Assembly (NCBI GenBank): GCA_964437265.1 | Contig: CAYTGY010000001.1 | Coordinates: forward strand, 1-40,375 | DNA length: 40,375 bases | Reading direction: 5' to 3' | Origin: an uncultured Spirochaetaceae bacterium | GTDB taxonomy: Bacteria; Spirochaetota; Spirochaetia; DSM-27196; SLST01 | In this document: in pieces, positions 2,451 through 20,619 of the stretch | How positions within the stretch are numbered: the stretch's first letter is position 1 | How the letters are laid out: the number at the start of each line of letters is the position of its first letter | The notes under the pieces: generated by a model | Databases searched by the model: none | The model's input: the letters and a program-made list of their open reading frames with translations, nothing else | Told to the model about the DNA's origin: nothing | Program-made: the position numbers and the translations under genes

Positions 2451-3681
2451 CCCGTCATCGGTGAATCGGGTTATTGCGCGAGCGCAAACTGCGCACGGTA
2501 GCGTGGCTGTACTGACAGCCTCAAGGCGGAGACGAGTGTCCAGATCGGAGAGACCGTGCGGTTTCACGGACCGGAGCCGAAGTGAGCTGCGACGGGTTCT
2601 GCTCGTGAACCAGGGCACCGTCCCGCACTATCGTGTGCCGGTCTACAATCACCTTCATAAGTACCTTCGTGGCTATGGGTTCGAGTTCATTGTCACGGCT
2701 GAAGGTGTTCAGGCGGGATCACCCGACTCCGTGCGATTCCCCTACATTGAGGCTACGCAAACTCTGGCAAGGCTGCTTAGCGGAATTGACCGGGCTTCGG
2801 TCGACGCAGTCATACTCTGGGTAAACCTGAAGAACGGTTTTCTCTTCCCTCTGATCCTGATTACCCGATGTTTGCTGCGCAAGCCGGTCCTGTACTGGGG
2901 TCATGGCGGTGATCTTGAGGATCCAAACTCACGTGTGAAAAACGCTCTCTATGCGATTCAGCACAAGCTCAGTGATGCGATCGTGCTGTACGCTGAGCAT
3001 CTACGTGACGTTCTCCCTGATAGCGTACGACACAAGGCGTTCTCTGCCACGAACACGCTATCCGTGCCAAGTGAACGCCCATCGAGTTCCGTCGTGCGTC
3101 GGTGCATGCAGGACTTTGGAGTAACGACTCGACGAAACATCATTTTCGTGGGTCGGGTAGAACGTAGGAAGCGGCCGATGGATCTGATCCAGGCGTTTCG
3201 AAGGATCGACAGGCAAGACCTCGGCCTGGTGGTTGTGGGCCCCGACCCTGATGGCATTCTCGACGGTGTCGCGGACGACCGCATTGTCATCACCGGGCCC
3301 GTGTATGGGGTAGCGAAAGAGGCGCTACTGCACGGGGCCGACGTGTTCTGCATTCCCGGGCATGTCGGACTTGGGATCGTCGATGCGTTCTGGGCTGGCC
3401 TGCCCCTCGTGACAGAAAACGTTCCGCACGCACCCGAGGTCGGTTTTCTCAAGGACGGCGAAAACGGCTTCATGGTGCCAGAAGGTGATACTGCCGCGCT
3501 TGCAGATCGCCTTGAGCTATTGGCGTTCGACGAAACCCTCCTGAACCAGTTTTCCGAGGCAGCACGGAGGGAGATAGCGACCAACGGCACAATCGATCGG
3601 ATGGCCGAGGGCTTCAGAGATGCCCTGCAGTACTCATTCCGCCATCGCTATCGCTCTCATCGAGAACGGAGCAAGACGTGA
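2437..3681 (+). CDS. GT-B fold glycosyltransferase (GT4 / Glycos_transf_1 type)
   Basis: C-terminal signature FVGRVERRKRPMDLIQAF...VVVGPDPDG...ITGPVYGVAKEALLHGADVFCIPGHVGLGIVDAFWAGLPLVT...ENGFMV, which includes the EX7E-type region. The first ~35-50 residues are Arg-rich and non-homologous, so the true start may be GTG 2536 (GGAG 4 nt upstream) rather than TTG 2437. Confidence 0.8.
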   Translation: MELVDPSSVNRVIARAQTAHGSVAVLTASRRRRVSRSERPCGFTDRSRSELRRVLLVNQGTVPHYRVPVYNHLHKYLRGYGFEFIVTAEGVQAGSPDSVRFPYIEATQTLARLLSGIDRASVDAVILWVNLKNGFLFPLILITRCLLRKPVLYWGHGGDLEDPNSRVKNALYAIQHKLSDAIVLYAEHLRDVLPDSVRHKAFSATNTLSVPSERPSSSVVRRCMQDFGVTTRRNIIFVGRVERRKRPMDLIQAFRRIDRQDLGLVVVGPDPDGILDGVADDRIVITGPVYGVAKEALLHGADVFCIPGHVGLGIVDAFWAGLPLVTENVPHAPEVGFLKDGENGFMVPEGDTAALADRLELLAFDETLLNQFSEAARREIATNGTIDRMAEGFRDALQYSFRHRYRSHRERSKT

Positions 3682-5042
3682 GCCCGCAGATTGCAAGGAT
3701 AGGCGTCTGGGCCTTCATCGTTGTGCTGTTCGTGATCGAATACCGTCGGGCTGATTCTCGAGCATCATTGGCGACCTGGGTTCCTACACTTTGGATGGGA
3801 GTGGCAGGTTCTCGCACGCTTTCCCAATGGTTGGACCCGGAATTAGTCGCCAATGGCTCTTCGGAGGGAACGCCGCTGGACCGGTTGTTCTTCTTTGGAT
3901 TGATCCTGCTCGGGATTCTGATCCTGATTGACCGCCGATTCAGCATTTCGGACTTTGCAAAGCGGAACCGCTGGTTGGTGCTGTATTTCTTGTTTGCCGC
4001 CGCGAGTATACTCTGGTCGTGGTATCCGGTTGACTCGGCGAAGCGACTGATCAAGAGCGTTGGCAATCTTGTCATGGCACTCCTGATCCTGACTGAGGAG
4101 TCGCCACGCGACTCTTTGGTGGCAGTGATACGCAGATTGGGGATGGTTCTTGTCCCGCTTTCGTGGCTGTACGTCAAGTACTTCCCCGACCTCGGACGCC
4201 AGTACCACATGGGTCAACCACTCATGAGGGGTGTTGCCCTCCAGAAAAACGGATTGGGCCAACTCTGCATGATCGTTGGGATAGTAGCGGCGTGGCAGTG
4301 GATTCTCAACACGCGTGGAGTGAGTGGAGCGCAGCGCAGCGGAAATGTGCTCTACGGCGCAGTAGTGGTTCCAGTGCTCGGATGGCTCTTGTTGAGGTCC
4401 GACAGTGCAACATCGCTGATGGGGCTCGGACTAGCCTGTGGACTGCTCGCCCTAGGACGCATCGGCGCGGTGGCGCGGCAGCCGTCCAAGTTGGTCAGCA
4501 TCGGCCTGATTCTGGGCGGCGCCGTGATTCTCGCGGAGGGGCTTTTCCACCTGAGTTCCGTGCTAATCGTGAACGTGCTCGGACGAGATCTTGAGCTCAC
4601 CGGTCGCGTTGATGTGTGGGCCACCCTCATAGGCTTGGCCAGGCGCCCGGTCATCGGTGCCGGCTACGAGAGCTTCTGGCTTACCTCGAATCCCATAACT
4701 GAGACATTCGGTCTGAACCAAGCCCACAATGGGTACCTGGAAACCTACCTGAATCTTGGCTTGGTCGGATTAGGCCTGCTTGTGCTTTCGATAGGGTCGG
4801 CAATCGTCAAGAACATACGGTCTGCATCACTTGACTTCGCCTTCTCTTACCTGCGTTTGACGCTCGTGATTGTGATCATATTCTACAATCTGACGGAGGC
4901 GATGTACCACGGTGTCAACAACCTCTGGGTGCTGTTCCTGGTCAGTGCAATCACAGTAGAGACGAGTGATATGCCGATCCCGGCGCTGGATGGGCCAGAC
5001 AGGTCGTCCGATTTCGTCGCAGATTCGGGCATAGCGCGATAA
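3678..5042 (+). CDS. wzy: O-antigen polymerase / O-antigen-ligase family membrane protein (Wzy-like)
   Basis: Polytopic membrane protein of about 10-12 hydrophobic segments. It has the Wzy_C-type loop ...GAGYESFWLTSNPITETFGLNQAHNGYLETYLNLGLVGLGLL. The GTG start overlaps the upstream TGA (GTGA). Confidence 0.8.
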   Translation: MSPQIARIGVWAFIVVLFVIEYRRADSRASLATWVPTLWMGVAGSRTLSQWLDPELVANGSSEGTPLDRLFFFGLILLGILILIDRRFSISDFAKRNRWLVLYFLFAAASILWSWYPVDSAKRLIKSVGNLVMALLILTEESPRDSLVAVIRRLGMVLVPLSWLYVKYFPDLGRQYHMGQPLMRGVALQKNGLGQLCMIVGIVAAWQWILNTRGVSGAQRSGNVLYGAVVVPVLGWLLLRSDSATSLMGLGLACGLLALGRIGAVARQPSKLVSIGLILGGAVILAEGLFHLSSVLIVNVLGRDLELTGRVDVWATLIGLARRPVIGAGYESFWLTSNPITETFGLNQAHNGYLETYLNLGLVGLGLLVLSIGSAIVKNIRSASLDFAFSYLRLTLVIVIIFYNLTEAMYHGVNNLWVLFLVSAITVETSDMPIPALDGPDRSSDFVADSGIAR

Positions 5043-5096
5043 AATCGAAGTTGAGACAGCCGGGACGGGATGACATGTCCCCAAGGAGGCAGAGAC

Positions 5097-6830
5097 GTGC
5101 TGCAAAACGCGTACAGACAACGGGCCGGTCGTGTTTCGATTATGGCCATGTTGTTCTGCTCATTTTGGTTCATACAACCCCTTCACCCGGAGGTGATCCC
5201 GCAGGAACGCCGGGTCGACTGGCTCGGCAGTGTAGGGGTTGAAGGCGGGATTCCCTACAGATCGACCGTCCACGCAAACGTCCTGGAATCGCCGTACAAT
5301 GCGGCTGGTGACGGCGTGGCTGATGATACAGCGGCGCTTCAAGCAGCGATTGATGACTGCCCACCGGGAGAAGTCGTGTGGATCCCCTCGGGGACCTATC
5401 GGATCACGGACCGCCTGAGGATGAAGTCTGGCGTTACGGTGCGTGGCGCGGGCATCGGCGAGACCCTAATCAAGGGGGACGATAGCTTCACAGGACCGTA
5501 TCTCGTCGGTTTTGAGGCGGAGGGGCTATGGTTCGACGGAGTGCTTGAGGCCGCCAGAAACGTTGCCGGGGCCGCGGCAAAGGGTGCTTCTCAAATACCC
5601 GTGTCGGGGAGTGGCTGGTCAGTTGGGGACGTCGTCCTCATCGATATCGCCGAGGATCCTCCCTTTTCGACGAATGACGGTACCGGCGGAACCTGCACGT
5701 GGTGCGGTGAGGAGAGCGGCGATCGACCAGCAGGCCAAGTTGTTGAGATCAGCGCGGTGCAGGCCGACTCAATCGACATCGCCATACCGCTGTACTTTGA
5801 CCTAGACGCCTCGCTATCTCCGCGTGTGTCTCGGTTACGCCCGGAGTGGATAATTGCTGAGGCCGGACTCGAAGACCTTTCATTGGACAACAGCGAGAGT
5901 CACAACCCGGCGCAGTACAACTACGGAATTCTGTACATGATGAGTTCGCGCGACAGTTGGGTGAGCAATGTCGAACTGGTCACAACGCTGAAGACCGGAC
6001 TAAAGATGACTTACAGCTATCGGAACACGATCAGGGGGTGCGTCATACGCAATAGCCACGCCTACACCTCCGATGCGGGCTACGGTCTCTACTTCACCTA
6101 TGGAGTGTCTGCGTCTGCGATTGAGAACAACATTTTCCACGATCTGACCGTAGGAGTGATCTTCAATGGTCCAGTATCGGGAAACGTGGTTGCCTACAAC
6201 TACATGACCGACATGAAGTCCGACACTTTCCCGACTTCGGTGCGAAACGGGATTATCGCGCACGGGGCGCACCCAATAATGAACCTGTTCGAAGGCAACT
6301 TTCTCGACGGACCGGGGATCAGCTGTGATTTTTACTGGGGTACTTCTAGCCACAATACCTTTCTCAGGAACCGAGTTGCCATCGATCCGACAAAGACAAC
6401 GGGTGCTGCGAACGTGTCTATCTGGAAGGGGCAGACCTACTACAATCTTGTGGGTAACGTTTTCGGCAGTGATGGGTACGAGTCTGTGTATGAGAGCACG
6501 AATTTGTACGGCGCTCCCATGATCTACAATCTCGACTTCACGAACATCGGATCAGAAGATGGCCAGACCGCCGCCACCATCCTCCGGCATGGCAACTATG
6601 ATTCAGTCAATGGCGGTATCGTGTGGGACCCGGCGATTCCCGATCAGGATGTGCCACCATCATACTACCTGAGCGAACGACCGAACTGGTGGGGAGGTCT
6701 GGATTGGCCTGCTGTCGGCCCCGGTCATCCGTCGATGTACTCAGACATCCCGGCAAAGTACCGTTTCGAGAATCCCGAGCACACCGGTGCAGTGGCTCCG
6801 CCGTCGAGACTGAGGATACAAAGCCCGTAG
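5097..6830 (+). CDS. Secreted right-handed beta-helix protein (pectate-lyase-superfamily fold); glycan depolymerase or polymer-level epimerase candidate
   Basis: N-terminal motif YNAAGDGVADDTAALQAAIDDCPPGEVVWIPSGTYRI is typical of Pectate_lyase_3-type beta-helix proteins. Downstream there are repeated short beta-rung segments. I prefer GTG 5097 because AAGGAGG (5083-5089) lies 7 nt upstream. The N-terminus RQRAGRVSIMAMLFCSFWFI looks like a signal peptide. The ORF track begins at ATG 5070. Confidence 0.75.
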   Translation: MLQNAYRQRAGRVSIMAMLFCSFWFIQPLHPEVIPQERRVDWLGSVGVEGGIPYRSTVHANVLESPYNAAGDGVADDTAALQAAIDDCPPGEVVWIPSGTYRITDRLRMKSGVTVRGAGIGETLIKGDDSFTGPYLVGFEAEGLWFDGVLEAARNVAGAAAKGASQIPVSGSGWSVGDVVLIDIAEDPPFSTNDGTGGTCTWCGEESGDRPAGQVVEISAVQADSIDIAIPLYFDLDASLSPRVSRLRPEWIIAEAGLEDLSLDNSESHNPAQYNYGILYMMSSRDSWVSNVELVTTLKTGLKMTYSYRNTIRGCVIRNSHAYTSDAGYGLYFTYGVSASAIENNIFHDLTVGVIFNGPVSGNVVAYNYMTDMKSDTFPTSVRNGIIAHGAHPIMNLFEGNFLDGPGISCDFYWGTSSHNTFLRNRVAIDPTKTTGAANVSIWKGQTYYNLVGNVFGSDGYESVYESTNLYGAPMIYNLDFTNIGSEDGQTAATILRHGNYDSVNGGIVWDPAIPDQDVPPSYYLSERPNWWGGLDWPAVGPGHPSMYSDIPAKYRFENPEHTGAVAPPSRLRIQSP

Positions 6831-6902: not shown

Positions 6903-8723
6903 ATGCCTGGACTAGCAGGGGCTGTTCGACTTTCCGGACGACTACCGCTGGAAGACTTGGTATCCACAATGGGCCGCACGCTGCAGCACGAGCCCTTCTA
7001 CACTTCTGGGGCTCACGTTGATGACACTCTCGGCGTCGGGGTTGCGTGGTCAGTCATCTCCGGCGGATTCGACGACTGCCTCCCGATCAGGGGTAACAAC
7101 AGTCAGACACTGTTGTTCTTCGTAGGCGAGGATTACCGTGATCGGGCCGAGATAGCCGGCTTCAGCGAATTGGGTGAGAGAAAGGGCGCCGAGTACTTGG
7201 CGTGCCTCTTTGATCGGAACGGATTGGCGGCGATCCCGCAGTTGAACGGCCGGTTCGCCGGCGTGTATATCGACAAAACGAACCAGAGCGTCGCGTTATT
7301 CACTGATCGATACGGCCTGGGACGGATCTATGTGTGTGAACGCGAGGGGGTGCTGTTCTTCTCAACCGAAGCCAAGGCGATCCTACAAGTTGATTCGGCT
7401 ACACGCAGTTTCGACCCTCAGGGCTTGGCGGACTTCTTCGCTGTAGGATGCACACTTGACAATCGTTCCCTGTTTAATGGCATCTCTGTGTTTCCAGCGG
7501 CTTCTGTGTGGGTGGTTACGGACGAGACGGTCCGGAAGCGTCGTTACTGGGATCCACAGGAACGACTTGCACTGCCGAAGCTTGCCGACGATCGGTACTA
7601 CGCTCAGCTCAAAGAAACGTGGAAGCGCGTCCTGCCGATGTATCTCCGCGCCGACGACCGCATCGCCCTTTCGTTGACGGGCGGGAAGGACAGTCGGATG
7701 ATTATGGCGTGGCTTGACGCCCGGCCCGACTCAGTCCCCTGTTACACCTTCGCGAGCCGGTTTCGGGATACTGAAGACGTTACGTTAGCGCGGAGGATCT
7801 CAGGGCTGTGTGAGCAACCTCACTCAACTATCGAGGTCGGTGATGAGTTTCTTTCCCACTTCGCAGAGCTCGCCTCTCGCACTGTCTATCTGACTGACGG
7901 CGTAATGGATGTGAGCGGGGCGCCGGACCTCTATGTGAACTCCATCGCTAGGGAGATTGCTCCGATCCGCCTAACTGGCAACTATGGGCAGGAGGTGCTT
8001 CGGGCTGATATTGCTTTCAAGCCGCTGCCGCTCTCGCAGTCGGTTTTCGGCGGCGGTGTCTCAGCCCTCATGGCCGCTTCCGTTGCGAGGTACGCTGAGT
8101 TACGCAGATCCGATCCCCTGCTGTTCATCCTTTCGGTTCAGCTTCCCTGGCATCACTACTCGCGCCTCTCGCTTGAGTTGTCGCAACTGAGCGTGAGGTC
8201 GCCATACATCGACAACGCGGTTGTTGATCATGTGCTACGGGCGTCGCCGAAGATGGTGTCGGATGTAGAGCTCCAGCTTCGTGTCATCCGCGATGGATAC
8301 CCAAGACTGGTCGATATCCAAACCGACCGAGGTCTTGGCGGCAAAAAGTCTGCCGCGATGGCAGCCCTCTCAAATGCCTACCGCGAGTTCACGTTCAAGG
8401 CAGAGTACGCATACGATTACGGGATGCCCAACTGGATGGTCAGACTGGATAAGTCTCTCGCGTTCTTGCACCTTGAGCGCCTCTTCTTGGGACGGCACAA
8501 GTTCTACCACTTCAGGACATGGTACCGTGGGCCGCTTGCCCCTACGGTGCGTCAGGTCCTTCTGGATCCAGCCGCGTCGCGAAGACCCTACCTCAATCGA
8601 GCGGAAGTAGAGCGAATAGTCGAGGAGCATGTGGCTGGGCGGGCCAATCATACGCTGGAAATCCACCGACTTCTGACCACGGAGATCATCGAGCGGCGAC
8701 TGCTGTCACTACACGAGGTGTGA
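6903..8723 (+). CDS. Asparagine-synthetase-family (AsnB-like) PP-loop amidotransferase paralogue lacking the N-terminal nucleophile Cys
   Basis: The GATase-7-like N-domain begins MPGLAG instead of MCGI(A/C)G. The synthetase domain keeps the PP-loop SLTGGKDSRM. An in-frame stop at 6852-6854 excludes a longer N-terminus. Confidence 0.85.
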   Translation: MPGLAGAVRLSGRLPLEDLVSTMGRTLQHEPFYTSGAHVDDTLGVGVAWSVISGGFDDCLPIRGNNSQTLLFFVGEDYRDRAEIAGFSELGERKGAEYLACLFDRNGLAAIPQLNGRFAGVYIDKTNQSVALFTDRYGLGRIYVCEREGVLFFSTEAKAILQVDSATRSFDPQGLADFFAVGCTLDNRSLFNGISVFPAASVWVVTDETVRKRRYWDPQERLALPKLADDRYYAQLKETWKRVLPMYLRADDRIALSLTGGKDSRMIMAWLDARPDSVPCYTFASRFRDTEDVTLARRISGLCEQPHSTIEVGDEFLSHFAELASRTVYLTDGVMDVSGAPDLYVNSIAREIAPIRLTGNYGQEVLRADIAFKPLPLSQSVFGGGVSALMAASVARYAELRRSDPLLFILSVQLPWHHYSRLSLELSQLSVRSPYIDNAVVDHVLRASPKMVSDVELQLRVIRDGYPRLVDIQTDRGLGGKKSAAMAALSNAYREFTFKAEYAYDYGMPNWMVRLDKSLAFLHLERLFLGRHKFYHFRTWYRGPLAPTVRQVLLDPAASRRPYLNRAEVERIVEEHVAGRANHTLEIHRLLTTEIIERRLLSLHEV

Positions 8724-8832: not shown

Positions 8833-9720
8833 GTGACCCCTCACATTAGCGCATGCGTTTGCACCTACAAGAGGCCCGAGCTACTGGACAAGCTGCTCCG
8901 CTCACTGGACGCGCAGCGAACTGAAGGTGAGTTCACGTATTCAATCGTGGTGTCAGACAATGACATCACGCGTTCGGGCGAGTCGGCCGTGATTGGACAT
9001 CGACAACGAAGCCGGATTCCGGTCGAGTATCTTGTGGAACCGCGCGCGAATATTGCGCACAACCGAAACAGGGCCGTCTCCGCAGCAAGAGGCGACTTCG
9101 TTGCGTTTGTCGACGATGACGAGTTCGCCGAACCCGACTGGCTTCTGAGTCTCGTGCGCATCTATCGTGATTATTCGTGTGACGGGGTTCTTGGCCCCGT
9201 GGTGCCACACTTCGAGAACACTGCGCCTCGGTGGGTCACCGACGGGGGGTTCTTCCAAAGACCAACGCATCACGACGGCTTCGAGATTGGGTTGTCCGAG
9301 GCTCGAACGGGGAACGTTCTCTTCCACCGGTCAGTCTTTGCAGGAGTACGAAGGCCATTCAACCCTCGATTCGGTACCGGATCGGAGGATGTTGATTTCT
9401 TTAGCCGGCTGATGGCGGAGGGGCGACGATTCGTCTGGAGCAGTCGCGCGGTCGTCCACGAGCTAGTGCCCAGCGTTCGGATGGGCAGACTGTACCTCAT
9501 AAGACTGGCCCTGCTTCGCGGCGGCAATGCCTACAAACGCACCGCCGGACGGCTGCGGAGAACTGCGAGATCGCTCGTCGCTGTACCAGCCTACGTCCCG
9601 CTGCTCGCAGTACTGCTTCTCGTCAGCTATAACCGACACCTGAGATTGCTCATCAGTCTCTGTGATCATCTTGGCGCGCTGGCCGCCGTGTTCGGAATAT
9701 CGATCAGAAGCCGTCGATAG
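8833..9720 (+). CDS. Family-2 glycosyltransferase with C-terminal transmembrane helices (polyprenyl-phosphate glycosyltransferase-like: ArnC/GtrB/DPM1 architecture)
   Basis: Motifs ISACVCTYKRPELL, VVSDNDITRSG and FVAFVDDDEFAEPDWL (the DXD motif). The C-terminus has hydrophobic helices SLVAVPAYVPLLAVLLLV and LLISLCDHLGALAAVFGI. GTG start with GAGGA 8 nt upstream. Confidence 0.8.
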   Translation: MTPHISACVCTYKRPELLDKLLRSLDAQRTEGEFTYSIVVSDNDITRSGESAVIGHRQRSRIPVEYLVEPRANIAHNRNRAVSAARGDFVAFVDDDEFAEPDWLLSLVRIYRDYSCDGVLGPVVPHFENTAPRWVTDGGFFQRPTHHDGFEIGLSEARTGNVLFHRSVFAGVRRPFNPRFGTGSEDVDFFSRLMAEGRRFVWSSRAVVHELVPSVRMGRLYLIRLALLRGGNAYKRTAGRLRRTARSLVAVPAYVPLLAVLLLVSYNRHLRLLISLCDHLGALAAVFGISIRSRR

Positions 9721-9747: not shown

Positions 9748-10626
9748 ATGGTACCAGAGACAACAACAACAGGCAGATTCCTCAGAACTGCGAGACTTCT
9801 AAATGAGTATTACGAGACCCCAACGGATCCGGCTGCCATCATCGAAGAACTGACGTCTCGTCGCCCCAGACCGGCAATGCTGTCATTCTTGTCTGACGTC
9901 GAGGATTGTCACAGGCTTCCATATCGGTATGAGATCGACAGCATCGCGGTTCTCCCGATCGACACGTACGAGCGTTGGTGGAAGAAGCAGATCAATGCCA
10001 AGACTCGCAACATGGTTCGCAAAGCGCAAAAATCCAATGTCGAAGTGAAGAGTGTACGCTTCAGCGACGATTTGGCAGCACAGATCAAGGCCATCTACGA
10101 TGAGTCGCCCACTCGGCAAGGAAAGAAGTTCAGCCACTACGGCAAACCAGTCGGTCAGGTGAAGGCCGAGAACGCGACTTTTTCGCAATCCAGCGACTAC
10201 CTAGGGGCCTTCTGGGACGGCAAGATGATCGGTTATGCGAAGCTTGTGCACGGCGCGAGGAAGTCGAGCTTGATGCAGATCGTCTCAATGGTTGGTCAGC
10301 GCGACAAGGCCCCAACCAACGCACTTGTCGCGCATGCGGTGAGAATCTGTGCTGAGCGCCAGTGTCGGTACCTCCATTACGGCGTTTGGAGTCGACGGGG
10401 TCTGGGTGGCTTCAAGAAGCACAACGGCTTCAAGCGGTACAACCTGGTCCGGTACTACGTCCCGCTCACGGCTCTTGGATACATCACGATCGCTCTGGGC
10501 CTTCACAAGCGGATATCGACGCGCATCCCCGGGCCTGTTCAGGACCGTCTCGTCGTACTACGCGATCGTCTCAATGCGGTCCGCCGCTTGCTTCGGCGCC
10601 GACGCACACAAGCCACTAGTTCGTAG
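9748..10626 (+). CDS. FemAB-family / GNAT-fold (Acetyltransf_6-like) protein; candidate aminoacyl-tRNA-dependent transferase
   Basis: The segment TYERWWKKQINAKTRNMVRKAQKSNVEVKSV resembles the ...sktRnqiRKAeKsGvev... segment of FemX/FemAB proteins. Further matches are a GNAT-like core (GAFWDGKMIGYAKLV...) and the C-terminal GGFKKHNGFKRY. AGGAG lies 5 nt before the ATG. The family call is by eye only. Confidence 0.6.
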   Translation: MVPETTTTGRFLRTARLLNEYYETPTDPAAIIEELTSRRPRPAMLSFLSDVEDCHRLPYRYEIDSIAVLPIDTYERWWKKQINAKTRNMVRKAQKSNVEVKSVRFSDDLAAQIKAIYDESPTRQGKKFSHYGKPVGQVKAENATFSQSSDYLGAFWDGKMIGYAKLVHGARKSSLMQIVSMVGQRDKAPTNALVAHAVRICAERQCRYLHYGVWSRRGLGGFKKHNGFKRYNLVRYYVPLTALGYITIALGLHKRISTRIPGPVQDRLVVLRDRLNAVRRLLRRRRTQATSS

Positions 10627-10657
10627 CTTCTCGGATATAAGTCGCAGACCGGAGACC

Positions 10658-10686
10658 TTGCGTCACTCCGAGCATCGTCGTAGCTT
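10658..10686 (+). promoter_or_regulatory. Candidate sigma70-type promoter for the tRNA-like gene (TTGCGT-17 nt-TAGCTT)
   Basis: TTGCGT at 10658-10663, a 17-nt spacer, then TAGCTT at 10681-10686. This would place a transcription start about 3-5 nt before the mature 5' end at 10697. It is a pattern match only. Confidence 0.25.
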
Positions 10687-10696
10687 ATTCAGCATT

Positions 10697-10767
10697 GGGG
10701 CCGTAGCCCAATCGGTAGGGCGTCACGGATTTCCGTGAAGGTGGGAGTTCGAATCTTCCCGGCTCCA
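10697..10767 (+). tRNA. tRNA-like gene: tRNA-Ala-type acceptor stem (G3:U70, A73) with canonical D and T arms but a non-canonical anticodon arm; anticodon undeterminable and no encoded CCA
   Basis: Hand fold as follows. Acceptor GGGGCCG (10697-10703) pairs with CGGCTCC (10760-10766), giving a G3(10699):T70(10764) wobble, and the discriminator is A at 10767. U8 and A9 are present. D stem GCCC/GGGC with loop AATCGGTA (A14, G18G19 and A21 present). T stem GGGAG/CTTCC with loop TTCGAAT. The segment between the D and T arms is 2 nt too short for a normal tRNA. It folds as TCACGG-ATTT-CCGTGA, a 6-bp stem with a tetraloop, or alternatively 5 bp with a 6-nt loop. No 5-bp stem with a 7-nt loop and U33 can be drawn. 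Confidence 0.75.
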
Positions 10768-10807
10768 TCGTCCCAACTTGTCCAAGCTTCGCTCGATTGA
10801 AACTGTC

Positions 10808-11872
10808 ATGACTGTGTGGATAGACCTTGCCAACGCACCCCACGTCCCCTTCTTCGCCCCAATCGTAGCCGAGTTGGAGAGACGCCGGCACACCTGCGTA
10901 ATCACCGCGCGGGACTTCAATCACACGGTGGAACTTGCCCGTCTTACCGGTCTTTCGGTTGTGCGTGTAGGAGCGCATGGTGGTCGAAAGGACGTTGCGA
11001 AGCTCGCGAATCTTCCTGTTCGCGTACGGCAGTTGCTGAATGCCGTCGGCGGTGACAAGCCGTCTGTCGCGGTTAGCCACAACTCGTACACTCAGACGCT
11101 CGCCGCCAGGATCAGTCGAATCCCCGTCGTCACAATAATGGACTACGAGGGACAACCAGCGAACCACATCGCGTTTCGGGCGGCGAACCGTGTCGTTGTG
11201 CCGGAAAGCTTCCCAAGAACAGATCTCCGGAGGTTTGGAGCTCGCGAGAACAAGACGGTGCGGTACCCCGGTTTCAAGGAGCAAGTGTACCTGGACTCAT
11301 TCGAGCCATCGGACGACGGGCTTCTGAGGATTCTGGAGGAGATCGATCCCCCCCACGGATGGGACCTCAATGCGGGCCTGCTCGTTACGGTTCGCACGCC
11401 AGCGACGATCGCGGCGTATCATCACTTCCACAATCCGCTGTTCGATTCGCTGCTGGAACGGCTGTCCACGATGCCTGGCGTCTTGAACGTGCTCCTCTGC
11501 CGCACCGAGGAGCAGGAACGAGCCTATCGAGGTCGCTTCTCCTCCATCCGTATCCCGGCCAACCAACTCGACGGCAAAGACCTTGTATATCACTCCGATT
11601 ACGTCTTCAGCGCGGGCGGTACGATGAACCGAGAGGCTGCAATCGTAGGTACACCGGCGTACACGCTCTTTGCCGGCAAGCTTCCAGCCATAGACGCCGA
11701 GCTGATTCGTTTGGGAAGACTTCGTCAGCTTCGCACCGTAGCAGACGTGAAACAGCTTGAACTGAGCAAGACACCGAAGCTGCCAACGCTGCGGAACCCA
11801 GGCTTGATCGCGTTTTTCGCTGATCAGATCGAGTTGCTCGCAAAACGTGGCCATCGTTCCATCACGACATGA
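10808..11872 (+). CDS. DUF354-family protein (GT-B/epimerase-like fold, function unknown), paralogue 1
   Basis: Starts MTVWIDLANAPHVPFFAPIV, nearly identical to the start of the next gene, and carries the shared C-terminal motif GGTMNREAA. I prefer ATG 10808 over TTG 10778 by analogy with the paralogue. Confidence 0.75.
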   Translation: MTVWIDLANAPHVPFFAPIVAELERRRHTCVITARDFNHTVELARLTGLSVVRVGAHGGRKDVAKLANLPVRVRQLLNAVGGDKPSVAVSHNSYTQTLAARISRIPVVTIMDYEGQPANHIAFRAANRVVVPESFPRTDLRRFGARENKTVRYPGFKEQVYLDSFEPSDDGLLRILEEIDPPHGWDLNAGLLVTVRTPATIAAYHHFHNPLFDSLLERLSTMPGVLNVLLCRTEEQERAYRGRFSSIRIPANQLDGKDLVYHSDYVFSAGGTMNREAAIVGTPAYTLFAGKLPAIDAELIRLGRLRQLRTVADVKQLELSKTPKLPTLRNPGLIAFFADQIELLAKRGHRSITT

Positions 11873-14146: not shown

Positions 14147-15484
14147 GTGAGTCAGACAGCTACAAGCGGGTCGACTGTCGCTGACGAGTTGATCAGCCGG
14201 TTCCGCAATCGCGAGGCGACGGTCGGTATCGTGGGTCTCGGCTACGTTGGTCTTCCGCTCGCGTTCTCTGCAGTGCGCCACGGCTTTTCCGTAGTGGGAT
14301 TCGACATCGATGGCAGCAAGGTTGATAAGCTGCGAAACGGCATATCCTATCTGTCGCACGTCGATGCCGCTCCGTTGGCCGAGGGGCTTTCGGAGAATCG
14401 CTTTGACGCCACGACACAGTTCCAGCGTATCCGGGACGTTGACGCGGTCCTCATTTGTGTTCCAACGCCACTCGGTTTGCATCGCGAGCCCGACACGTCT
14501 TACATCGAGTCGACGGTTTCGTCAATCGTTCCGTTTCTCAAGCGTGGGCAGCTTGTCAGCCTCGAGAGCAGCACGTATCCTTCTACGACGCGGACACTCG
14601 TCGCCCAGCCAATTGAGGAGTCCGGGCTCGTCGTAGGTGAGGATGTGTTTGTGGTGTACTCCCCCGAACGTGAAGATCCAGGAAACGCATCGTTTGCGGT
14701 GTCTCAGATACCGAAACTGCTCGGAGGCGTTTCTCCGCGTTGCAATGTGGTCGGTGAGGCCCTCTATAGCAATCTTGTCAGCCGCGTTGTGCCGACGAGA
14801 ACGCTTGAAGTAGCTGAGATGGCGAAACTGCTCGAGAACATCTACCGCGCCGTCAATATTGGACTTGTGAACGAGATGAAGATGGTCGCGGACAAACTCG
14901 GAGTCAGCATCTGGGAGGTAATCGATGCAGCCTCAACCAAGCCTTTCGGATTCACGCCGTTTTATCCCGGACCGGGTCTCGGCGGGCACTGTATCCCAAT
15001 CGATCCGTTCTACCTGACCTGGAAGGCACGCGAGGTTGGCGTTAATACGCGGTTCATCGAACTCGCGGGAGAGATAAACAGCTCGATGCCGGCGTGGGTC
15101 GTGTCAAAAATCAGTGCGGGATTGAACCGTGCGGGGATTGCCGTTGGCCGAGCTCGTGTTCTCATACTCGGCGTCGCCTATAAGAAAAATATCGACGATA
15201 TGCGGGAGTCGCCCGCAATCGAAATCATCGAGCAGCTCAGTGCGCTGGGCGCCAGCGTCGAGTACTCTGATCCTCATGTACCGAGCCTTCCCCCTATGAG
15301 GAGGCACACTTTGGAGATGGAGAGCGTGCCGCTCACACCTTCCCGGCTTGAGGAGTACGATTGCGTGGTTGTCGCGACGGATCACGACGAGTTCGACTAT
15401 GATCTCGTACTCGATTGTGCTCGCCTGATCGTGGACACGCGTGGTCGGTACCGCCAGGAGTGCGACCACGTCGTGGGCGCCTGA
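14147..15484 (+). CDS. wbpA: UDP-N-acetyl-D-hexosamine 6-dehydrogenase (WbpA/TviB/WbpO type nucleotide-sugar dehydrogenase)
   Basis: Rossmann motif VGIVGLGYVGLPLA, which is the WbpA/TviB flavour rather than the WecC GLGYIGLP flavour. Catalytic region GPGLGGHCIPIDP. The C-terminal UDP-binding domain VAYKKNIDDMRESPA is present. GTG start with AAGGAG 7 nt upstream. Confidence 0.85.
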   Translation: MSQTATSGSTVADELISRFRNREATVGIVGLGYVGLPLAFSAVRHGFSVVGFDIDGSKVDKLRNGISYLSHVDAAPLAEGLSENRFDATTQFQRIRDVDAVLICVPTPLGLHREPDTSYIESTVSSIVPFLKRGQLVSLESSTYPSTTRTLVAQPIEESGLVVGEDVFVVYSPEREDPGNASFAVSQIPKLLGGVSPRCNVVGEALYSNLVSRVVPTRTLEVAEMAKLLENIYRAVNIGLVNEMKMVADKLGVSIWEVIDAASTKPFGFTPFYPGPGLGGHCIPIDPFYLTWKAREVGVNTRFIELAGEINSSMPAWVVSKISAGLNRAGIAVGRARVLILGVAYKKNIDDMRESPAIEIIEQLSALGASVEYSDPHVPSLPPMRRHTLEMESVPLTPSRLEEYDCVVVATDHDEFDYDLVLDCARLIVDTRGRYRQECDHVVGA

Positions 15485-15532: not shown

Positions 15533-17104
15533 TTGGCCAACCTAGACAGGAATGCCCCAACCGAACCCTCTCCGTCTCTCGGGGAAGACAACGCACAGCT
15601 TCGTCGCAACGCGGTACGAGGCGCCGGTGCCAGCGTAGGCTCTGAAATCGTAGCGTTTGCTAGTCATCTTGTCGGGGTCCTCGTCCTTGGCAGACTCCTC
15701 GATCCACGCGATTTCGGTGCAGTTGCAATGGTGTCGACGTTGTACCTGCTGCTGATGAACTTCGGGATCAACGGGTTTACCGAGTATATCATCCAGAAGA
15801 GAGACGTAACGAGCCAGGATTTGGACGGCCTTTTCTGGCTTCATCTGCCGATCGCGCTTCTCCTTTCGAGTCTCCTGATGGCGCTCGCCCCGGTGCTGTC
15901 CCGTTTTTACGACGAGCCGATCGTTGCACCGGTGGCACGCGTGATGTCAGTAGGCATACCGATCCAGATGCTGGCCACCCAGCCGTTGGCGATCCTCAAG
16001 CGCGAAATGAGGTTCGGCCGAGTTGCCGCATTGCGCGTTGCCAGTGGTATCCTCAGTGTGACGTTCGCTATCGCGTGTGCCATTGCTGGGTTTGGCGTCT
16101 GGGCCATAGTTGTTCGGCAGCTCAGCGAGATCGCTGTAATGGCCGTCGGGGCCATCATCGTGGCAAAGTGGCGGCCCGGTGGGCCCCGACACTGGAAAGC
16201 GGCAACCCACGGCCTGAAGTATGCATTAAGCGTATACGGTACATTTCTCCTCAACTATCTCTCACGAAATCTCGACAAGATCCTTTTGGGACGGTTCCAC
16301 GGCGGGGAAGTGCTCGGGAACTACGATAGGGCGTACCACCTTGCATCGATGCCAGCCGCCCAGCTCGTCATCCCATTGCACGGGGTCGGACTATCGTCGC
16401 TGAGTCGATTGAGAGAGCAGCCTGATCAGTTCGCGCGGTTTTACAGTCGTGCTTTGTCAGCACTGGCCTTGCTGGGCGTGTGGGCGTCTGTGGTTCTGAG
16501 CGTGTCGGGGAAGGACATTGTCATCCTTCTACTCGGCGAGAAATGGGCCCTCGCGGGGAATGTCGTCCAGGCGTTTGGGCTGGGCATCGCCCCAACGATA
16601 CTGAACCAGACCCTCATGTGGCTGCATCTGTCTCTTGGGAAGCCTGAGCGCTGGTTTCGCTGGAACCTCATCTCGGTTTCTCTGATCGCTGTTGGTCTTC
16701 TCGTCGCCGCGCCCTTGGGGCCCATCACTGTGGCTTATGCATACGTGGTACTCAACTACGTGCTCTTCCCCTTTGCGGTTGCGTATGCTGGAAAGCCGAT
16801 TGACCTTCACGTTCGCGAAGTTGTGGGACCCGTACTTCCTTACTTCTTAGCAGGAGCCGCTGCGTACGGTGCGACGGCACTAGCAAGGGCCAACCTACTG
16901 ACGGTGATCCCCATCTACTCATCCGCTATCGGGCGTCTATTGCTAGAGATCCCCATTGCGACCGTGGCCTGCCTTGCTTTCATTGTCCTGTTTCACCGCA
17001 GTTTTTCACCGTTGACGGCGATGGTCCACGCGGCCAAGATCATGCTCGAGAGACGAACGCGGCGCGGTCCGATTGATCCTCGCTCGCACACGGAAGAGGA
17101 CTAA
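15533..17104 (+). CDS. wzx: Wzx-type polysaccharide/oligosaccharide flippase (MOP superfamily)
   Basis: 523 aa with about 12-14 TM segments. The N-terminal pattern NAVRGAGASVGSEIVAFASHLVGVLVLGRLLDPRDFG is typical of Polysacc_synt flippases. TTG start with GAGGGA 6 nt upstream. Confidence 0.8.
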   Translation: MANLDRNAPTEPSPSLGEDNAQLRRNAVRGAGASVGSEIVAFASHLVGVLVLGRLLDPRDFGAVAMVSTLYLLLMNFGINGFTEYIIQKRDVTSQDLDGLFWLHLPIALLLSSLLMALAPVLSRFYDEPIVAPVARVMSVGIPIQMLATQPLAILKREMRFGRVAALRVASGILSVTFAIACAIAGFGVWAIVVRQLSEIAVMAVGAIIVAKWRPGGPRHWKAATHGLKYALSVYGTFLLNYLSRNLDKILLGRFHGGEVLGNYDRAYHLASMPAAQLVIPLHGVGLSSLSRLREQPDQFARFYSRALSALALLGVWASVVLSVSGKDIVILLLGEKWALAGNVVQAFGLGIAPTILNQTLMWLHLSLGKPERWFRWNLISVSLIAVGLLVAAPLGPITVAYAYVVLNYVLFPFAVAYAGKPIDLHVREVVGPVLPYFLAGAAAYGATALARANLLTVIPIYSSAIGRLLLEIPIATVACLAFIVLFHRSFSPLTAMVHAAKIMLERRTRRGPIDPRSHTEED

Positions 17105-18121: not shown

Positions 18122-19051
18122 ATGGGCCGCAGTATCTCCATAACAGTTGCAGTGTGTACTCACAACAACGCAGCGGTGCTCGAGCGTATGCTCAAGCACC
18201 TTTCTCGTGCTTGCGCGCTTGACGCTGGCACTCACGATGTTCTCGTTGTAGCAAACGCCTGTGCCGATTCAACTGTGACTGTCGCAAAGAGGATCTCCCC
18301 CCTTTTTGGCGGGAGACTTCGCGTTGTTTCCGAGGAAGCGGTCGGCCTGAGCAACGCTAGAAATCGAGCACTGGTTGAGTCGACCAGCGACTCCGTTGCC
18401 TATCTCGACGACGATGTTATCGTTGATGAGCGGTGGCTTGTAGAGGTGCGCTTAGCGTTTGAGGAGTACTCGGCAAATGTGGTCGGTGGCCGAAGCTACC
18501 TATTGTGGCCCTCTCCCAGCGGGCAACCCGCGTGGCTCGGCGATCGGCTGCTCTACCTTCTTTCGAGACTAGACCACGGCGATCAGCCAATAGCCGGGCG
18601 AGATGTCGAGCTCTACGGTCTGAACTTCGCTGTGGATCGCAGGGCGGCGTTATCGGTCGGTGGATTCTCTGCCCACATGGGGCGTCGCGGTGGACTGCTC
18701 TTATCTGGTGAGGAAAAGGCGTTGCAGGCGAGGGTTGCCGAACTCGGCAAGCCCGTTGTCTACTGGCCCCGTGCGATCGTCGGACACATAGTGCCAGTCG
18801 AGCGAACCAAGCCCGGCTGGTTCTTCCGCCGATCGATCTGGGGAGGGGTTTCCGACGAACGATATGCCCCGGGCACGCGGGGCATCCGTGGCCTGACAAG
18901 AGCAGCGTTCCGCTTCGTGCGGGCAGCAACTCGGGCTTTCGCACTACTGGTCGCTGGAGACACTCAGGAAGCAATGTACAAAGCCTGCGGTGCCATGTTC
19001 CGTGTTGGCACTATGTTGGAGGTTTCTGGGATCGCCCGCCTCTTTGGGTGA
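18122..19051 (+). CDS. Family-2 glycosyltransferase
   Basis: MGRSISITVAVCTHNNAAVLERML...VLVVANACADST...AYLDDDVIVDERWL. The start could also be ATG 18092. The ORF-track start at 17957 lies inside the upstream gene. Confidence 0.8.
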   Translation: MGRSISITVAVCTHNNAAVLERMLKHLSRACALDAGTHDVLVVANACADSTVTVAKRISPLFGGRLRVVSEEAVGLSNARNRALVESTSDSVAYLDDDVIVDERWLVEVRLAFEEYSANVVGGRSYLLWPSPSGQPAWLGDRLLYLLSRLDHGDQPIAGRDVELYGLNFAVDRRAALSVGGFSAHMGRRGGLLLSGEEKALQARVAELGKPVVYWPRAIVGHIVPVERTKPGWFFRRSIWGGVSDERYAPGTRGIRGLTRAAFRFVRAATRAFALLVAGDTQEAMYKACGAMFRVGTMLEVSGIARLFG

Positions 19052-20619
19052 ATTTCGCCGTTGTGTTTACCGTATCGAACCCGCACATGCGCGGGCATGA
19101 CCCAAGACTACCCAGCGCCGACGTAGCGCGTTCCTCACTGCAGAGCTCTGTGACACACGTCTCTCTGAGCGCTTTCCTGGCTGCCGCCGTCTTCCTCTCG
19201 CTTGTCCTCAACATCTGGGTCGACGAGGCCTACAGTCTTGTGACGACCGACAGCGGGCTCGGAAAGGCGTTGCAGACGTGGGAGTTCCAGCGCCAGGCGC
19301 CGCTCTATTTCTGGCTCCTTTCAGTTGTTCGGCTGATAGGTTCCAGCATCTTCGTTGCGCGGACCTTGTCTATTGCAGCGGTTGCGGCTTTCTTGCTCGC
19401 CGCCGGGAGACTGGCACGTCACGTTGGTTCTCCGTCGCTGGGGCTAATGGCGATTCCGGTGTTCGCGGCGCATCCTTATGCCATGTGGGCCGCTACGGAG
19501 ATTCGCGTCTACGGACTCGCGCTCTTCGTGTGTGGCTTGCTCTTGCTGCTTGAGGAGCGCAGCATTGCCGAACCGTCCGAACGGCCAATTGTAGTCGCGG
19601 CCGTTACCGGGCTTCTGTGGGCTGTGGCGCTGTACACGCACTACTACCTTGCGTTTGTACTTGTGGGGATAGTCGTTGCGGGAATCACGACCCGGGGCTG
19701 GAGGAGCCTACGGGATCTCGGTCTGAAGTCAGTCGTGGCGCTGGTAGCGTTTGTCCCGCTTGCGATTACGGTCGTTGGGCAGGTGACCGCGGCGTCGTCG
19801 GATATGGCCAGACCGGGCGTGGTGTCGGCCGCGTCGGCCGTCTACGGTTATATTAAGGCGTATCTGTTCCCATGGGTCAACCTTGTGGGCGAGACCGTAG
19901 GTTTTATCATTGGTGTTGTTGCAGTCGCCGGCGTCTTCGCGTGGGTTGTCGCCCGGCGAGATAGAGTACGGCCGCGACACCTCCGGCTCTGGATCACTCT
20001 TGGCGTGACTGCTGCCTTGTACGTTGCGGCGGCAGCCGTCGTCGGCCTTGAGGCGGTCAAGCAGCGCCACGCGTACCCGCTGCTGTTGCTGGTCGTTCTA
20101 TCGGCGCTTACGTTGGCTGAACTCGTGCGGGATGAGAATCGACGACGTGTTGTCGGCCATGTTCTTGGCGTGATTCTCTTTTTGAGTTTTCTGTTCACTA
20201 CAGTCCACGACAATGCCCAGCTTGCCAAGATCGGAGACTACAAGCGAGTCGCCGCCTACATAGAAGCTCACGAGGTGCCGAACGAACCCATCGTGTTGTT
20301 CAACGCCGAGGCGATTCTACCGTTCGAGCACTACTATGCCGGGCCGAATGTACTGCTCGCCATTCCGTCCTACCCGAGCCTTGAGACCTTCGATCCAACG
20401 ACCTTCGTGATCGAGAGTGAGGACGACGTGGAGTCCGCATTTGCGTCTCTCGGAGACGACCATAGCTCCATCTGGCTTGCTGACAACCTAATCAGCGGAT
20501 GGGCCGGAATCGACTACGACCGACAGCACCTGGACGAGTATCTCGCGAGCAGGTACGTGCCGGTTGAGTCGACAGACTTCTACGAAGCACGTGTGACGCG
20601 CTACGAGCGCAATCAGTAG
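19048..20619 (+). CDS. GT-C fold membrane glycosyltransferase (GT39/GT83-like: ArnT/PMT family)
   Basis: About 11 TM helices followed by a soluble C-terminal domain of about 130 aa. The first periplasmic loop carries WVDEAYS, a DE-x-Y motif typical of ArnT/PMT_2 enzymes. GTGA overlap with the upstream stop; ATG 19087 is an alternative start. Confidence 0.7.
   Translation: MNFAVVFTVSNPHMRGHDPRLPSADVARSSLQSSVTHVSLSAFLAAAVFLSLVLNIWVDEAYSLVTTDSGLGKALQTWEFQRQAPLYFWLLSVVRLIGSSIFVARTLSIAAVAAFLLAAGRLARHVGSPSLGLMAIPVFAAHPYAMWAATEIRVYGLALFVCGLLLLLEERSIAEPSERPIVVAAVTGLLWAVALYTHYYLAFVLVGIVVAGITTRGWRSLRDLGLKSVVALVAFVPLAITVVGQVTAASSDMARPGVVSAASAVYGYIKAYLFPWVNLVGETVGFIIGVVAVAGVFAWVVARRDRVRPRHLRLWITLGVTAALYVAAAAVVGLEAVKQRHAYPLLLLVVLSALTLAELVRDENRRRVVGHVLGVILFLSFLFTTVHDNAQLAKIGDYKRVAAYIEAHEVPNEPIVLFNAEAILPFEHYYAGPNVLLAIPSYPSLETFDPTTFVIESEDDVESAFASLGDDHSSIWLADNLISGWAGIDYDRQHLDEYLASRYVPVESTDFYEARVTRYERNQ

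Follow-up and report, generated by a model that had tools for sequence, protein, structure and literature searches.

Staphylococci keep non-proteogenic tRNA-Gly species for their Fem enzymes (PMC7826273). These are extra tRNA genes whose products are charged by the housekeeping synthetase and channelled as donors to FmhB, FemA and FemB; they have a normal anticodon arm, are still readable as tRNA-Gly, serve peptidoglycan synthesis and do not lie in the transferase operon. The present analysis concerns a 71-nt tRNA-Ala-like element at 10697..10767 (+) of a 40,375-nt stretch of DNA from an uncultured Spirochaetaceae bacterium (assembly GCA_964437265.1, contig CAYTGY010000001.1), which as a whole is called the window below. 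In contrast to the staphylococcal RNAs, this kind of RNA has a functionally deleted anticodon arm and an alanine (or, in other loci, serine) identity, and its gene abuts that of a predicted Fem-like transferase within a polysaccharide cluster, in Gram-negative phyla. From the RNA structure, the conservation of the identity set, covariation, gene linkage and the predicted fold of the neighbouring protein, it is considered rather probable that the element is a dedicated aminoacyl-carrier RNA, descended from tRNA-Ala and excluded from the ribosome, that serves glycan aminoacylation.

Other described systems share single parts of this arrangement. FemX of Weissella viridescens, a fold match of the window protein (Foldseek E ~3e-9), takes alanine from tRNA-Ala acceptor-arm RNA and recognises the acceptor arm only, chiefly G2-C71 (PMC2655667), but it uses normal tRNA-Ala, acts on UDP-MurNAc-pentapeptide and is only about 14% identical to the window protein. 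The best structural matches, Sba18 and Sbb17 (9wqy, 9wqx, 9wqw), are examples of Fem-like acylation of a sugar amine from aminoacyl-tRNA, and Orf11 aminoacylates an amino sugar from Gly-tRNA (PMC12945691); Sba18 and Sbb17 differ in belonging to Streptomyces secondary metabolism and in using normal tRNA-Gly. Allo-tRNAs of Acidobacteria and tRNA-Other of Bacillus cereus are non-canonical tRNA-shaped genes with uncertain or non-translational function, found partly in the same phyla (PMC5389517; PMC7609411), but in allo-tRNAs the acceptor/T branches are 8/4 or 9/3 and the anticodon loops are genuine, and neither kind has been reported as Fem-linked or devoid of an anticodon loop. The tRNA-like domain of tmRNA is also anticodon-less, charged with alanine via G3:U70 and processed like a tRNA, whereas tmRNA as a whole is far larger, with an mRNA-like frame and pseudoknots; it has no normal D arm and acts together with SmpB on the ribosome. 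Neither ARAGORN nor Rfam called a tmRNA in the window, and the element is a complete 71-nt cloverleaf with a full D arm.

A Fem-like protein paired with an AsnB-like one, as in the window, also occurs in exopolysaccharide loci in the form of the PEP-CTERM/XrtA FemAB protein (TIGR03019) and amidotransferase (TIGR03108). The window proteins score far below the respective cut-offs: TIGR03019 (pepcterm_femAB), the sole family signal of the Fem-like protein, reaches 18.2 bits against 260.35, and TIGR03108, the sole NCBIfam signal of the AsnB-like protein, 112 against 817. We know of no tRNA-like partner of the PEP-CTERM/XrtA FemAB system and of no private RNA for enzymes of the Sba18/Sbb17 type.

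The preliminary description of this DNA had presented the arrangement as not previously described. A search of full texts, largely outside the subscription-only literature and including reviews of non-canonical tRNAs and of aminoacyl-tRNA-dependent enzymes, yielded no account of tRNA-like genes without an anticodon in linkage with Fem-like genes, and 'anticodon-less tRNA' appeared there only as a nuclease cleavage product. That Fem enzymes can be served by non-proteogenic tRNAs is already known from staphylococci; what is new is the functional loss of the anticodon arm, the existence of Ala and Ser versions, their place in polysaccharide operons of Verrucomicrobiota and Acidobacteriota, and the AsnB-like partner. 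If the carrier role is true, the element would belong to the first natural cellular tRNA descendants with a replaced anticodon arm that are kept solely as carriers for a non-ribosomal enzyme. The partition of aminoacyl-tRNA between translation and other pathways, here hard-wired into the RNA, would become testable, and compact orthogonal acyl-carrier RNAs would be available to synthetic biology.

The tRNA-like element and its Ala-like relatives

The class-I tRNA fold that had been drawn by hand was recovered by three programs. Rfam RF00005 matches 10697-10767 (+) end to end (model positions 1-71) with 55.4 bits, the gathering score being 29, and E=2e-9; ARAGORN reports a single gene over the whole window, at 10696-10769 (+), as 'tRNA-???' with a 2-nt 'anticodon'; and RNAfold gives a perfect cloverleaf as both the minimum free energy and the centroid structure (-33.6 kcal/mol, z=-3.0 versus shuffles). 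The acceptor stem GGGGCCG/CGGCUCC (10697-10703/10760-10766, +) is followed by U8, a D arm at 10706-10721 (+) with the loop AAUCGGUA, a T arm at 10743-10759 (+) with the loop UUCGAAU, and the discriminator A73 at 10767 (+). The features by which RF00005 tRNAs are recognised, a 7-bp acceptor, G18G19 in the D arm, a GUUCRA T arm and a score above gathering, are all present. The RNA has a 4-nt variable loop and no encoded CCA, and is 2 nt below the standard class-I length, 1 in the anticodon-arm region and 1 in the variable loop.

As had been proposed, the acceptor end carries the set of elements by which alanyl-tRNA synthetase (AlaRS) identifies its substrate. G3:U70, the major one, pairs 10699 with 10764 (+), and G2:C71, G4:C69 and A73 accompany it. 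The preliminary description was also right about the arm at 10723..10738 (+). Here the sequence UCACGG-AUUU-CCGUGA forms a hairpin of 6 bp with a tetraloop (or 5 bp with a 6-nt loop), and the RF00005 alignment places 6 nt at the site of the 7-nt anticodon loop. A decoding adaptor would have a 5-bp stem, a 7-nt loop, U33 and a 3-nt anticodon, whereas the loop here has 4 (or 6) nt. Since the anticodon loop is missing, the RNA is predicted to be unable to decode on the ribosome.

Relatives were collected from both the protein and the RNA side. The protein encoded next to the element has 2606 homologues, none closer than 53% identity, and 34 of them were aligned. Scanning this alignment against one genome per species gave at least 563 genome loci, of which the best 80 were fetched; all counts out of 80 refer to these. 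Genes labelled 'tRNA-???' by ARAGORN stand directly after the Fem-like homologue in many Verrucomicrobiota loci, where the RNA reads GGGGCNG-UA-GCUC-AAUUGGCA-GAGC-[hairpin]-AGAU-GGAAG-UUCGANC-CUUCC-CNGCUCC-A. A covariance model (R1) built from 12 relatives scored the window RNA at 87.9 bits and found the element in 15 of the 80 loci, in 12 of them in the gap after the Fem-like gene. For the reverse test, a metagenome collection was scanned with a DNA pattern that fixed only the T arm and the 5' half and allowed any 12-36 nt in the anticodon region, which gave ordinary tRNAs the chance to match as well. The 51 matches comprised 46 anticodon-less Ala-like RNAs and five ordinary tRNAs, namely two tRNA-Ala(UGC) and three tRNA-Trp. 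Outside the anticodon arm the two true tRNA-Ala are near-identical to the family, a likeness in sequence that shows its origin.

Pooled from genomes and metagenomes, the copies amount to 62 sequences, 49 of them distinct and mostly from Verrucomicrobiota. Position 3:70 is G:U in 49/49 and never G:C or A:U; A73 and the pairs 1:72, 2:71, 4:69 and 5:68 are likewise unchanged in all, while pair 6:67 occurs in six types (AU 27, GC 7, UA 6, CG 5, GU 2, UG 2). The hairpin has a stem of 3-8 bp and a loop of 4-6 nt in the relatives, many of which carry UUCG or GCAA tetraloops or a GUNAAA hexaloop. Double (compensatory) changes were found in four of the five modelled stem pairs; the paired cells reach 96.2% over the 49 distinct sequences versus 41-55% with slid partners, and the observed covariation score was reached by 0/500 shuffles. 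A canonical anticodon arm with a 7-nt loop occurs in none of the 49. The sole sequence type that can be drawn with such a loop (L029/L112, in our numbering of loci) has no U33 in that drawing and an arm 7 nt too long. As read from these alignments, what selection keeps is not an anticodon but a stable stem-loop together with the elbow (G18G19 and the T loop) and the AlaRS identity set, the latter very strictly.

Two of the loci deserve a remark. L086 holds about nine canonical tRNA genes at 57-2155, including a tRNA-Ala(UGC) near-identical to the tRNA-like family save for the anticodon arm. L007 (CAZBIC010000089.1) is titled 'uncultured Bifidobacterium sp.', yet it is near-identical to the Verrucomicrobia loci L066 and L004, and the label of this metagenome-assembled genome is probably wrong.

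The Fem-like protein and its linkage to the RNA

The gene upstream of the element, at 9748..10626 (+), encodes a 292-aa Fem/MprF-like tandem-GNAT protein, a presumed aminoacyl transferase by fold and homologues. A spacer of 70 nt (10627..10696, +) without consensus promoter or terminator separates its stop codon from the RNA, and about 40 nt separate the RNA from the next ATG at 10809, which are the distances that had been given before. An exact look-up of the protein on other contigs gave no match. The AlphaFold2 model, made with the 34-sequence alignment, has a predicted local distance difference test (pLDDT) value of 92 and a predicted template-modelling (pTM) score of 0.85. In a Foldseek search against the PDB the top matches were Sbb17 and Sba18, aminoacyl-tRNA-dependent peptide synthases, one of them in complex with its amino-sugar substrate streptothrisamine (E ~1e-9, TM up to 0.60), followed by FemX of W. 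viridescens (including peptidyl-RNA complexes), MprF-type aminoacyl-phosphatidylglycerol synthases and FemA. The entries 9wqy, 7z6a, 4ii9, 9goe, 5vrv and 1lrz were matched with probability 1.00, E of 1e-9 to 1e-6 and TM of 0.5-0.6, and the tandem-GNAT fold of the predicted model can be superimposed on FemX, MprF and Sba18.

The homologues point the same way. Weak PF02388 matches occur in 28 of the 34 sampled (best E=5.7e-4), and PF13480 in 25. The invariant KTRNMVRKAxK helix of the family aligns with the KHRNVIRNALKKGV motif of a true FemAB protein in locus L045, and the invariant GxFKKHxxF resembles the RFK..FGG motif by which that FemAB protein aligns with Sba18; the motifs KxRNxxRxAxKxGV and (R)FK, common to the family and the Fem proteins, are conserved. 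The protein is regarded as Fem-like because of its fold and homologues, Pfam giving no match, and by the predicted model it is filed in the Fem/MprF-like superfamily rather than in Pfam FemAB. Of the FemAB/GNAT-fold neighbour that had been claimed, the fold is borne out by the model and the homologues, while the missing Pfam match and the sub-threshold TIGR03019 score do not support a formal FemAB assignment.

In the metagenomes, where copies were found by the DNA pattern alone, 32 of the 46 Ala-like RNAs directly abut a Fem-like gene. In thirty of these the gene directly before the RNA, on the same strand, encodes a homologue of the window protein, and in two (L090, L127) the gene directly before encodes a different FemAB protein, with PF02388 at 33-37 bits (gathering 24) and also PF13480. 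Three copies beyond the 32 have a Fem-like gene within 3-8 kb. In two further copies the homologue lies 2.6-2.9 kb upstream, and two more have the same arrangement, cut by the contig end. A paralogue lies 7 kb from one copy, five copies sit at the edge of their contig, and four are near other polysaccharide genes only (YdjC-type deacetylase, hexapeptide acyltransferase, methyltransferase, UDP-sugar dehydrogenase). A FemAB protein above the PF02388 threshold is encoded directly upstream of an Ala-like RNA in L045 (1693-2742), L127 (645-1700), L090 (417-1580) and L014 (1091-1960). The order in L045 is FemAB, RNA, window-family gene, AsnB-like gene, and some clusters thus encode two different Fem-type enzymes flanking one RNA. 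An Ala-like RNA beside a Fem-type gene in dozens of unrelated soil and freshwater bacteria looks like a private carrier for the decoration of surface polysaccharides. Both the co-occurrence with Fem-family genes and the compensatory changes, which the preliminary description had proposed to look for in relatives, were therefore found.

The distance from the Fem-like stop codon to the start of the RNA is 0-14 nt in 17 loci and 68-70 nt in two, one of them the window; in many others the RNA overlaps the transferase coding sequence (CDS). Since the RNA of the relatives lies so close to this CDS or overlaps it, co-transcription and processing are implied. A consensus scan of the window reported no promoter or terminator near the RNA. 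The promoter of its own that had been suggested (TTGCGT-17-TAGCTT) was not supported, as it has 6/12 sigma-70 consensus positions, was not reported by the scan and would find no room in the relatives. Judged by this spacing, co-transcription is the rule and an own promoter is not.

The idea that an Ala-tRNA-like RNA without decoding function serves a Fem-type transferase as its dedicated donor is supported by the conservation, the covariation, the linkage found in both directions, the predicted fold and the Ser-like parallel described below. Its processing, charging, exclusion from translation, transfer and acceptor, as we infer them, would be as follows. The RNA would be transcribed within the polysaccharide operon together with the transferase gene, excised by the ordinary tRNA-processing enzymes (RNase P plus 3' processing) and given its CCA post-transcriptionally. 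Housekeeping AlaRS would alanylate it via G3:U70, A73 and G2:C71. Without an anticodon loop it would not take part in ribosomal decoding, and EF-Tu may bind it less well because of its irregular T stem; in this way the alanine would be reserved for the adjacent tandem-GNAT enzyme. This enzyme would move the alanine to the amino group of a sugar or of a lipid-linked repeat-unit intermediate, an amino-sugar acceptor being plausible, and a Cys-less AsnB-like enzyme would probably form a second, ATP-dependent amide bond on the same product.

Several observations weigh against this proposal. The minor Escherichia coli AlaRS determinant G20 is absent, position 20 being U in the window and mostly C in the relatives. 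The 292-aa protein of the window has no Pfam match at E<=0.1, PF02388 (FemABX) included. Its TM-scores are moderate (0.5-0.6), and the acetyl-CoA-dependent tandem GNATs VipF and 3frm are also among the fold matches, so the fold alone does not decide between the use of aminoacyl-tRNA and that of acyl-CoA. The first two pairs of the T stem, 49:65 and 50:64, being mostly G:C, do not establish weak binding to EF-Tu. A tRNA-like gene within 3 kb is lacking in about 53 of the 80 genome loci, and therefore the enzyme family does not require a private RNA. Finally, the Fem-like stop codon lies inside the RNA in about 27 loci, being the UAG of U8-A9-G10 in 16 and a UAG at RNA positions 30-32 in six; RNase P cleavage at G1 would then leave a non-stop mRNA, which is awkward for an RNA that is to be cut out and used.

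In L003, which was checked by eye, the Fem-like open reading frame (ORF) spans 2983-3864 and the RNA starts at 3855. The Fem-like CDS also runs into the RNA in L004, L007, L010, L066, L083, L103, L115 and others. The embedded stop codon hints at a coupling of translation and processing, or at the charging of an unprocessed 3' tRNA-like end. In the boldest version, suggested because the transferase stop codon lies inside the RNA in many relatives, the RNA would stay on the transferase mRNA and be charged in cis, by analogy with a viral 3' tRNA-like structure.

Alternative explanations and the neighbouring genes

The AsnB-like gene bears most directly on the first alternative. It lies at 6903..8723 (+) and encodes a Cys-less asparagine-synthetase-like protein of 606 aa (Pfam Asn_synthase, GATase_7) with the N-terminus MPGLAG. 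Since MPG stands in place of the catalytic MCG, the glutaminase of this protein is dead, and by analogy with other AsnB-family enzymes that lack the cysteine it is probably an ATP-dependent carboxylate-amine ligase. The replacement of MCG, the glutaminase nucleophile motif, by MPG is found in 76 of 85 orthologues. An orthologue follows immediately downstream of the Fem-like gene in 68 of the 80 genome loci (at ~3900-5800 in most of L001-L080), and the RNA, where present, usually occupies the gap between the two. The order in the window is AsnB-like gene, family-2 glycosyltransferase gene (8833..9720, +; assigned by Pfam, with a homologue in 38 of the 80 loci), Fem-like gene and RNA. The RNA could then be a scaffold on which the amino acid is elaborated, for example N-acylated with a uronic acid by the AsnB-like ligase, before the Fem-like enzyme delivers it, as an analogue of tRNA-dependent amino-acid transformations. 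This would suit an RNA that usually sits exactly between the two genes, a Fem-like gene tied more tightly to the AsnB-like gene than to the RNA, and an enzyme that has no glutaminase cysteine and so needs another amine nucleophile. It is nevertheless unlikely: most Fem-like/AsnB-like pairs have no private RNA, and in the window two genes separate the AsnB-like gene from it. In addition, we know of no precedent for an AsnB-like enzyme acting on aminoacyl-tRNA.

A role as a processing or stability signal only, which recruits RNase P/Z to the long transcript or protects a 3' end and for which aminoacylation is irrelevant, appears quite unlikely. In every case the RNA lies between genes and in their direction, often touching or overlapping the CDS upstream, no promoter or terminator is near, and tRNA-like punctuation is known in organelles, all of which would fit. 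Yet RNase P/Z do not need G3:U70 or A73, both of which are fixed in 49/49 while other pairs vary, and punctuation is not expected to be specific to one enzyme family. There would also be no reason for the switch from Ala-type to Ser-type identity along the family tree. The punctuation alternative raised in the preliminary description is better seen as probably a part of the maturation route, because of the co-transcription and processing implied by the spacing in relatives, and not as a competing function.

It is very unlikely that the element is a regulatory mimic, that is, a decoy or sensor for AlaRS, the transferase or another factor that tunes polysaccharide synthesis without donating an amino acid. 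AlaRS binding would need the same conserved identity elements, and regulatory tRNA mimics exist, such as T-box ligands and tRNA-Other (PMC5389517). Against this, Rfam and the consensus scan revealed no leader, attenuator or riboswitch-like partner structure, the place downstream of the transferase CDS suits a product more than a regulator, and the predicted Fem-like fold argues for catalysis on the 3' end of the RNA.

Highly improbable is the possibility that the neighbour is an ordinary acyl-CoA-dependent tandem GNAT whose linkage to the RNA has another cause. The window protein has no Fem match at curated thresholds, acetyl-CoA enzymes appear among its fold matches, and a PDB sequence search with the family profile gave only one weak match to a GNAT besides spurious thermonuclease matches. 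The top fold matches are, on the other side, aminoacyl-tRNA-dependent enzymes; 28 of 34 homologues show PF02388 weakly, the same RNA stands beside true PF02388 FemAB proteins, and the motifs shared with Fem proteins are conserved. A decayed tRNA-Ala pseudogene or an assembly error, which a single window could not exclude and of which the degenerate look of one Ser-like copy (L049) is a reminder, is scarcely credible, being refuted by the conservation of 49 distinct sequences, drawn from independent assemblies, and by their compensatory changes and selected tetraloops.

Other candidates were rejected as well. The same two-gene position across phyla, together with the covariation, rules out a tmRNA and an integration-site remnant in the same way as a pseudogene or an assembly error, and a phage tRNA was ruled out because a scan of viral contigs with the RNA pattern gave 0 matches.

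Ser-like and Thr relatives, the T stem and the surrounding cluster

In Acidobacteriaceae, R1 gave low-scoring matches directly upstream of the homologue, and these proved to be tRNA-like genes of class II. A dedicated Ser-like covariance model (R2) finds 14 such RNAs among the 80 genome loci, earlier detection having relied on ARAGORN and low R1 scores. They have the acceptor GGAGAGG/CCUCUCC, G73, a 3-bp D stem and a 5-bp variable arm with a GNRA loop, and their 'anticodon' arm is a stem of 6-8 bp with a 4-nt or 8-nt loop. In terms of sequence, the long variable arm, G73 and G2:C71 are hallmarks of tRNA-Ser identity, here without an anticodon loop. Copies lie in L044 (2779-2865), L053 (859-943), L054 (2855-2942), L057 (2829-2913), L060 (2829-2913), L065 (2554-2638), L070 (2860-2947), L071 (2825-2909), L075 (2830-2914), L035 (2771-2857), L013 (5836-5928), L017 (5889-5981) and L014 (4269-4360). 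Rfam does not call the Ser-like elements at its gathering threshold, ARAGORN mislabels two of them as tRNA-Leu, and one Ala-like copy was labelled tRNA-Arg; the family thus draws attention to a class of genes that annotation programs for tRNAs leave as 'undetermined' or misname.

Neither AlaRS nor the seryl-tRNA synthetase (SerRS) uses the anticodon for identity, and for this reason the anticodon can be lost without loss of charging. A parallel Ser-like family is for the same reason predicted by the donor hypothesis alone. In a neighbour-joining tree of 105 homologues, all Ala-like loci, including the window, fall into one clade and the Ser-like loci into a subclade of the other, so that the RNA type tracks the protein tree; two Limisphaerales loci, L013 and L017, have both RNAs. 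The Ser-like RNA of L035 has the acceptor GGGGAGG/CCUCUCC, with G3:U70 together with G73, and from this sequence might be chargeable by both AlaRS and SerRS. In L049 (2727-2812), the 3' acceptor strand of the Ser-like copy does not pair with the 5' strand, and the copy is apparently decayed.

Fem-like genes also adjoin tRNA-Thr (UGU/CGU) genes, in L014 (2719-2790) and L123 (11654-11725). These two RNAs have a normal anticodon loop, a 1-nt T-stem bulge and a D loop that lacks G18G19. The threonyl-tRNA synthetase (ThrRS) reads the anticodon as an identity element, and the two RNAs may represent dedicated donors of a third kind, for a synthetase that cannot do without the anticodon. The wider generalisation, to which we would give about even chances, is that bacteria of at least three phyla have repeatedly turned tRNA genes into operon-embedded aminoacyl-carrier RNAs stripped down to the needs of the synthetase and the processing enzymes, with the anticodon dropped where the synthetase permits it (Ala, Ser) and kept for Thr, and that these RNAs feed the building of amino-acid or peptide-like bridges on surface polysaccharides by Fem-like and Cys-less AsnB-like enzymes. 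It would amount to a natural experiment on identity rules, with the anticodon lost only by anticodon-independent identities.

The affinity of EF-Tu for the tRNA body is set by the pairs 49:65, 50:64 and 51:63, and the staphylococcal cell-wall tRNA-Gly species have weak combinations, including A51-U63 (PMC7826273). Of the 49 Ala-like sequences, 46 have A:U at 51:63; the window has G:U. The pair 52:62 is unpaired in 16/49, and L002/L025 are mismatched at both 51:63 and 52:62. On its 3' side the T stem has one nucleotide too many, probably bulged, in nine of the 49 distinct sequences. It is seen in loci L003, L004, L007, L066, L083, L103, L115, L128, L106 and L120, and all Ser-like members have one such extra nucleotide, for which a bulge after position 63 fits all. 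As a pattern in sequence, these irregularities on the surface read by EF-Tu may reflect selection against EF-Tu binding, or relaxed selection for it, although 49:65 and 50:64 are mostly G:C.

The whole window is one long co-directional polysaccharide cluster. Besides the genes already named it encodes Wzy (3678-5042), a UDP-GlcNAc/ManNAc-type dehydrogenase (14147-15484), Wzx (15533-17104), a hexapeptide acyltransferase (28178-28843), a DegT aminotransferase (28830-29975), a GFO/IDH/MocA oxidoreductase (29849-30901) and a second AsnB with the N-terminus MCGICG (32053-34038), as well as glycosyltransferases, two UDP-GlcNAc 2-epimerases, a B12-radical-SAM enzyme, an acyltransferase-3/SGNH protein and an AMP-ligase. 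The window ORFs 19048-20619, 20640-21605 and 37781-39157 gave no Pfam match. Oxidoreductase, aminotransferase and acyltransferase genes of these types belong to the 2,3-diamino uronic acid route. The earlier remark that an amino uronic acid pathway in the cluster would supply the acceptor stands as far as these gene types are concerned, which are no proof of the acceptor. More generally, the RNAs suggest that the exopolysaccharides of Verrucomicrobiota and Acidobacteriota, phyla abundant in soil and freshwater, bear amino-acid decorations or cross-links that have so far gone unrecognised.

YdjC-type or polysaccharide-deacetylase-type domains recur near the RNA, in L013 (644-1387), L087 (2148-2882), L091 (1077-1838) and the window (86-1237, DUF3473). 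Enzymes of these types could expose a sugar amine for aminoacylation.

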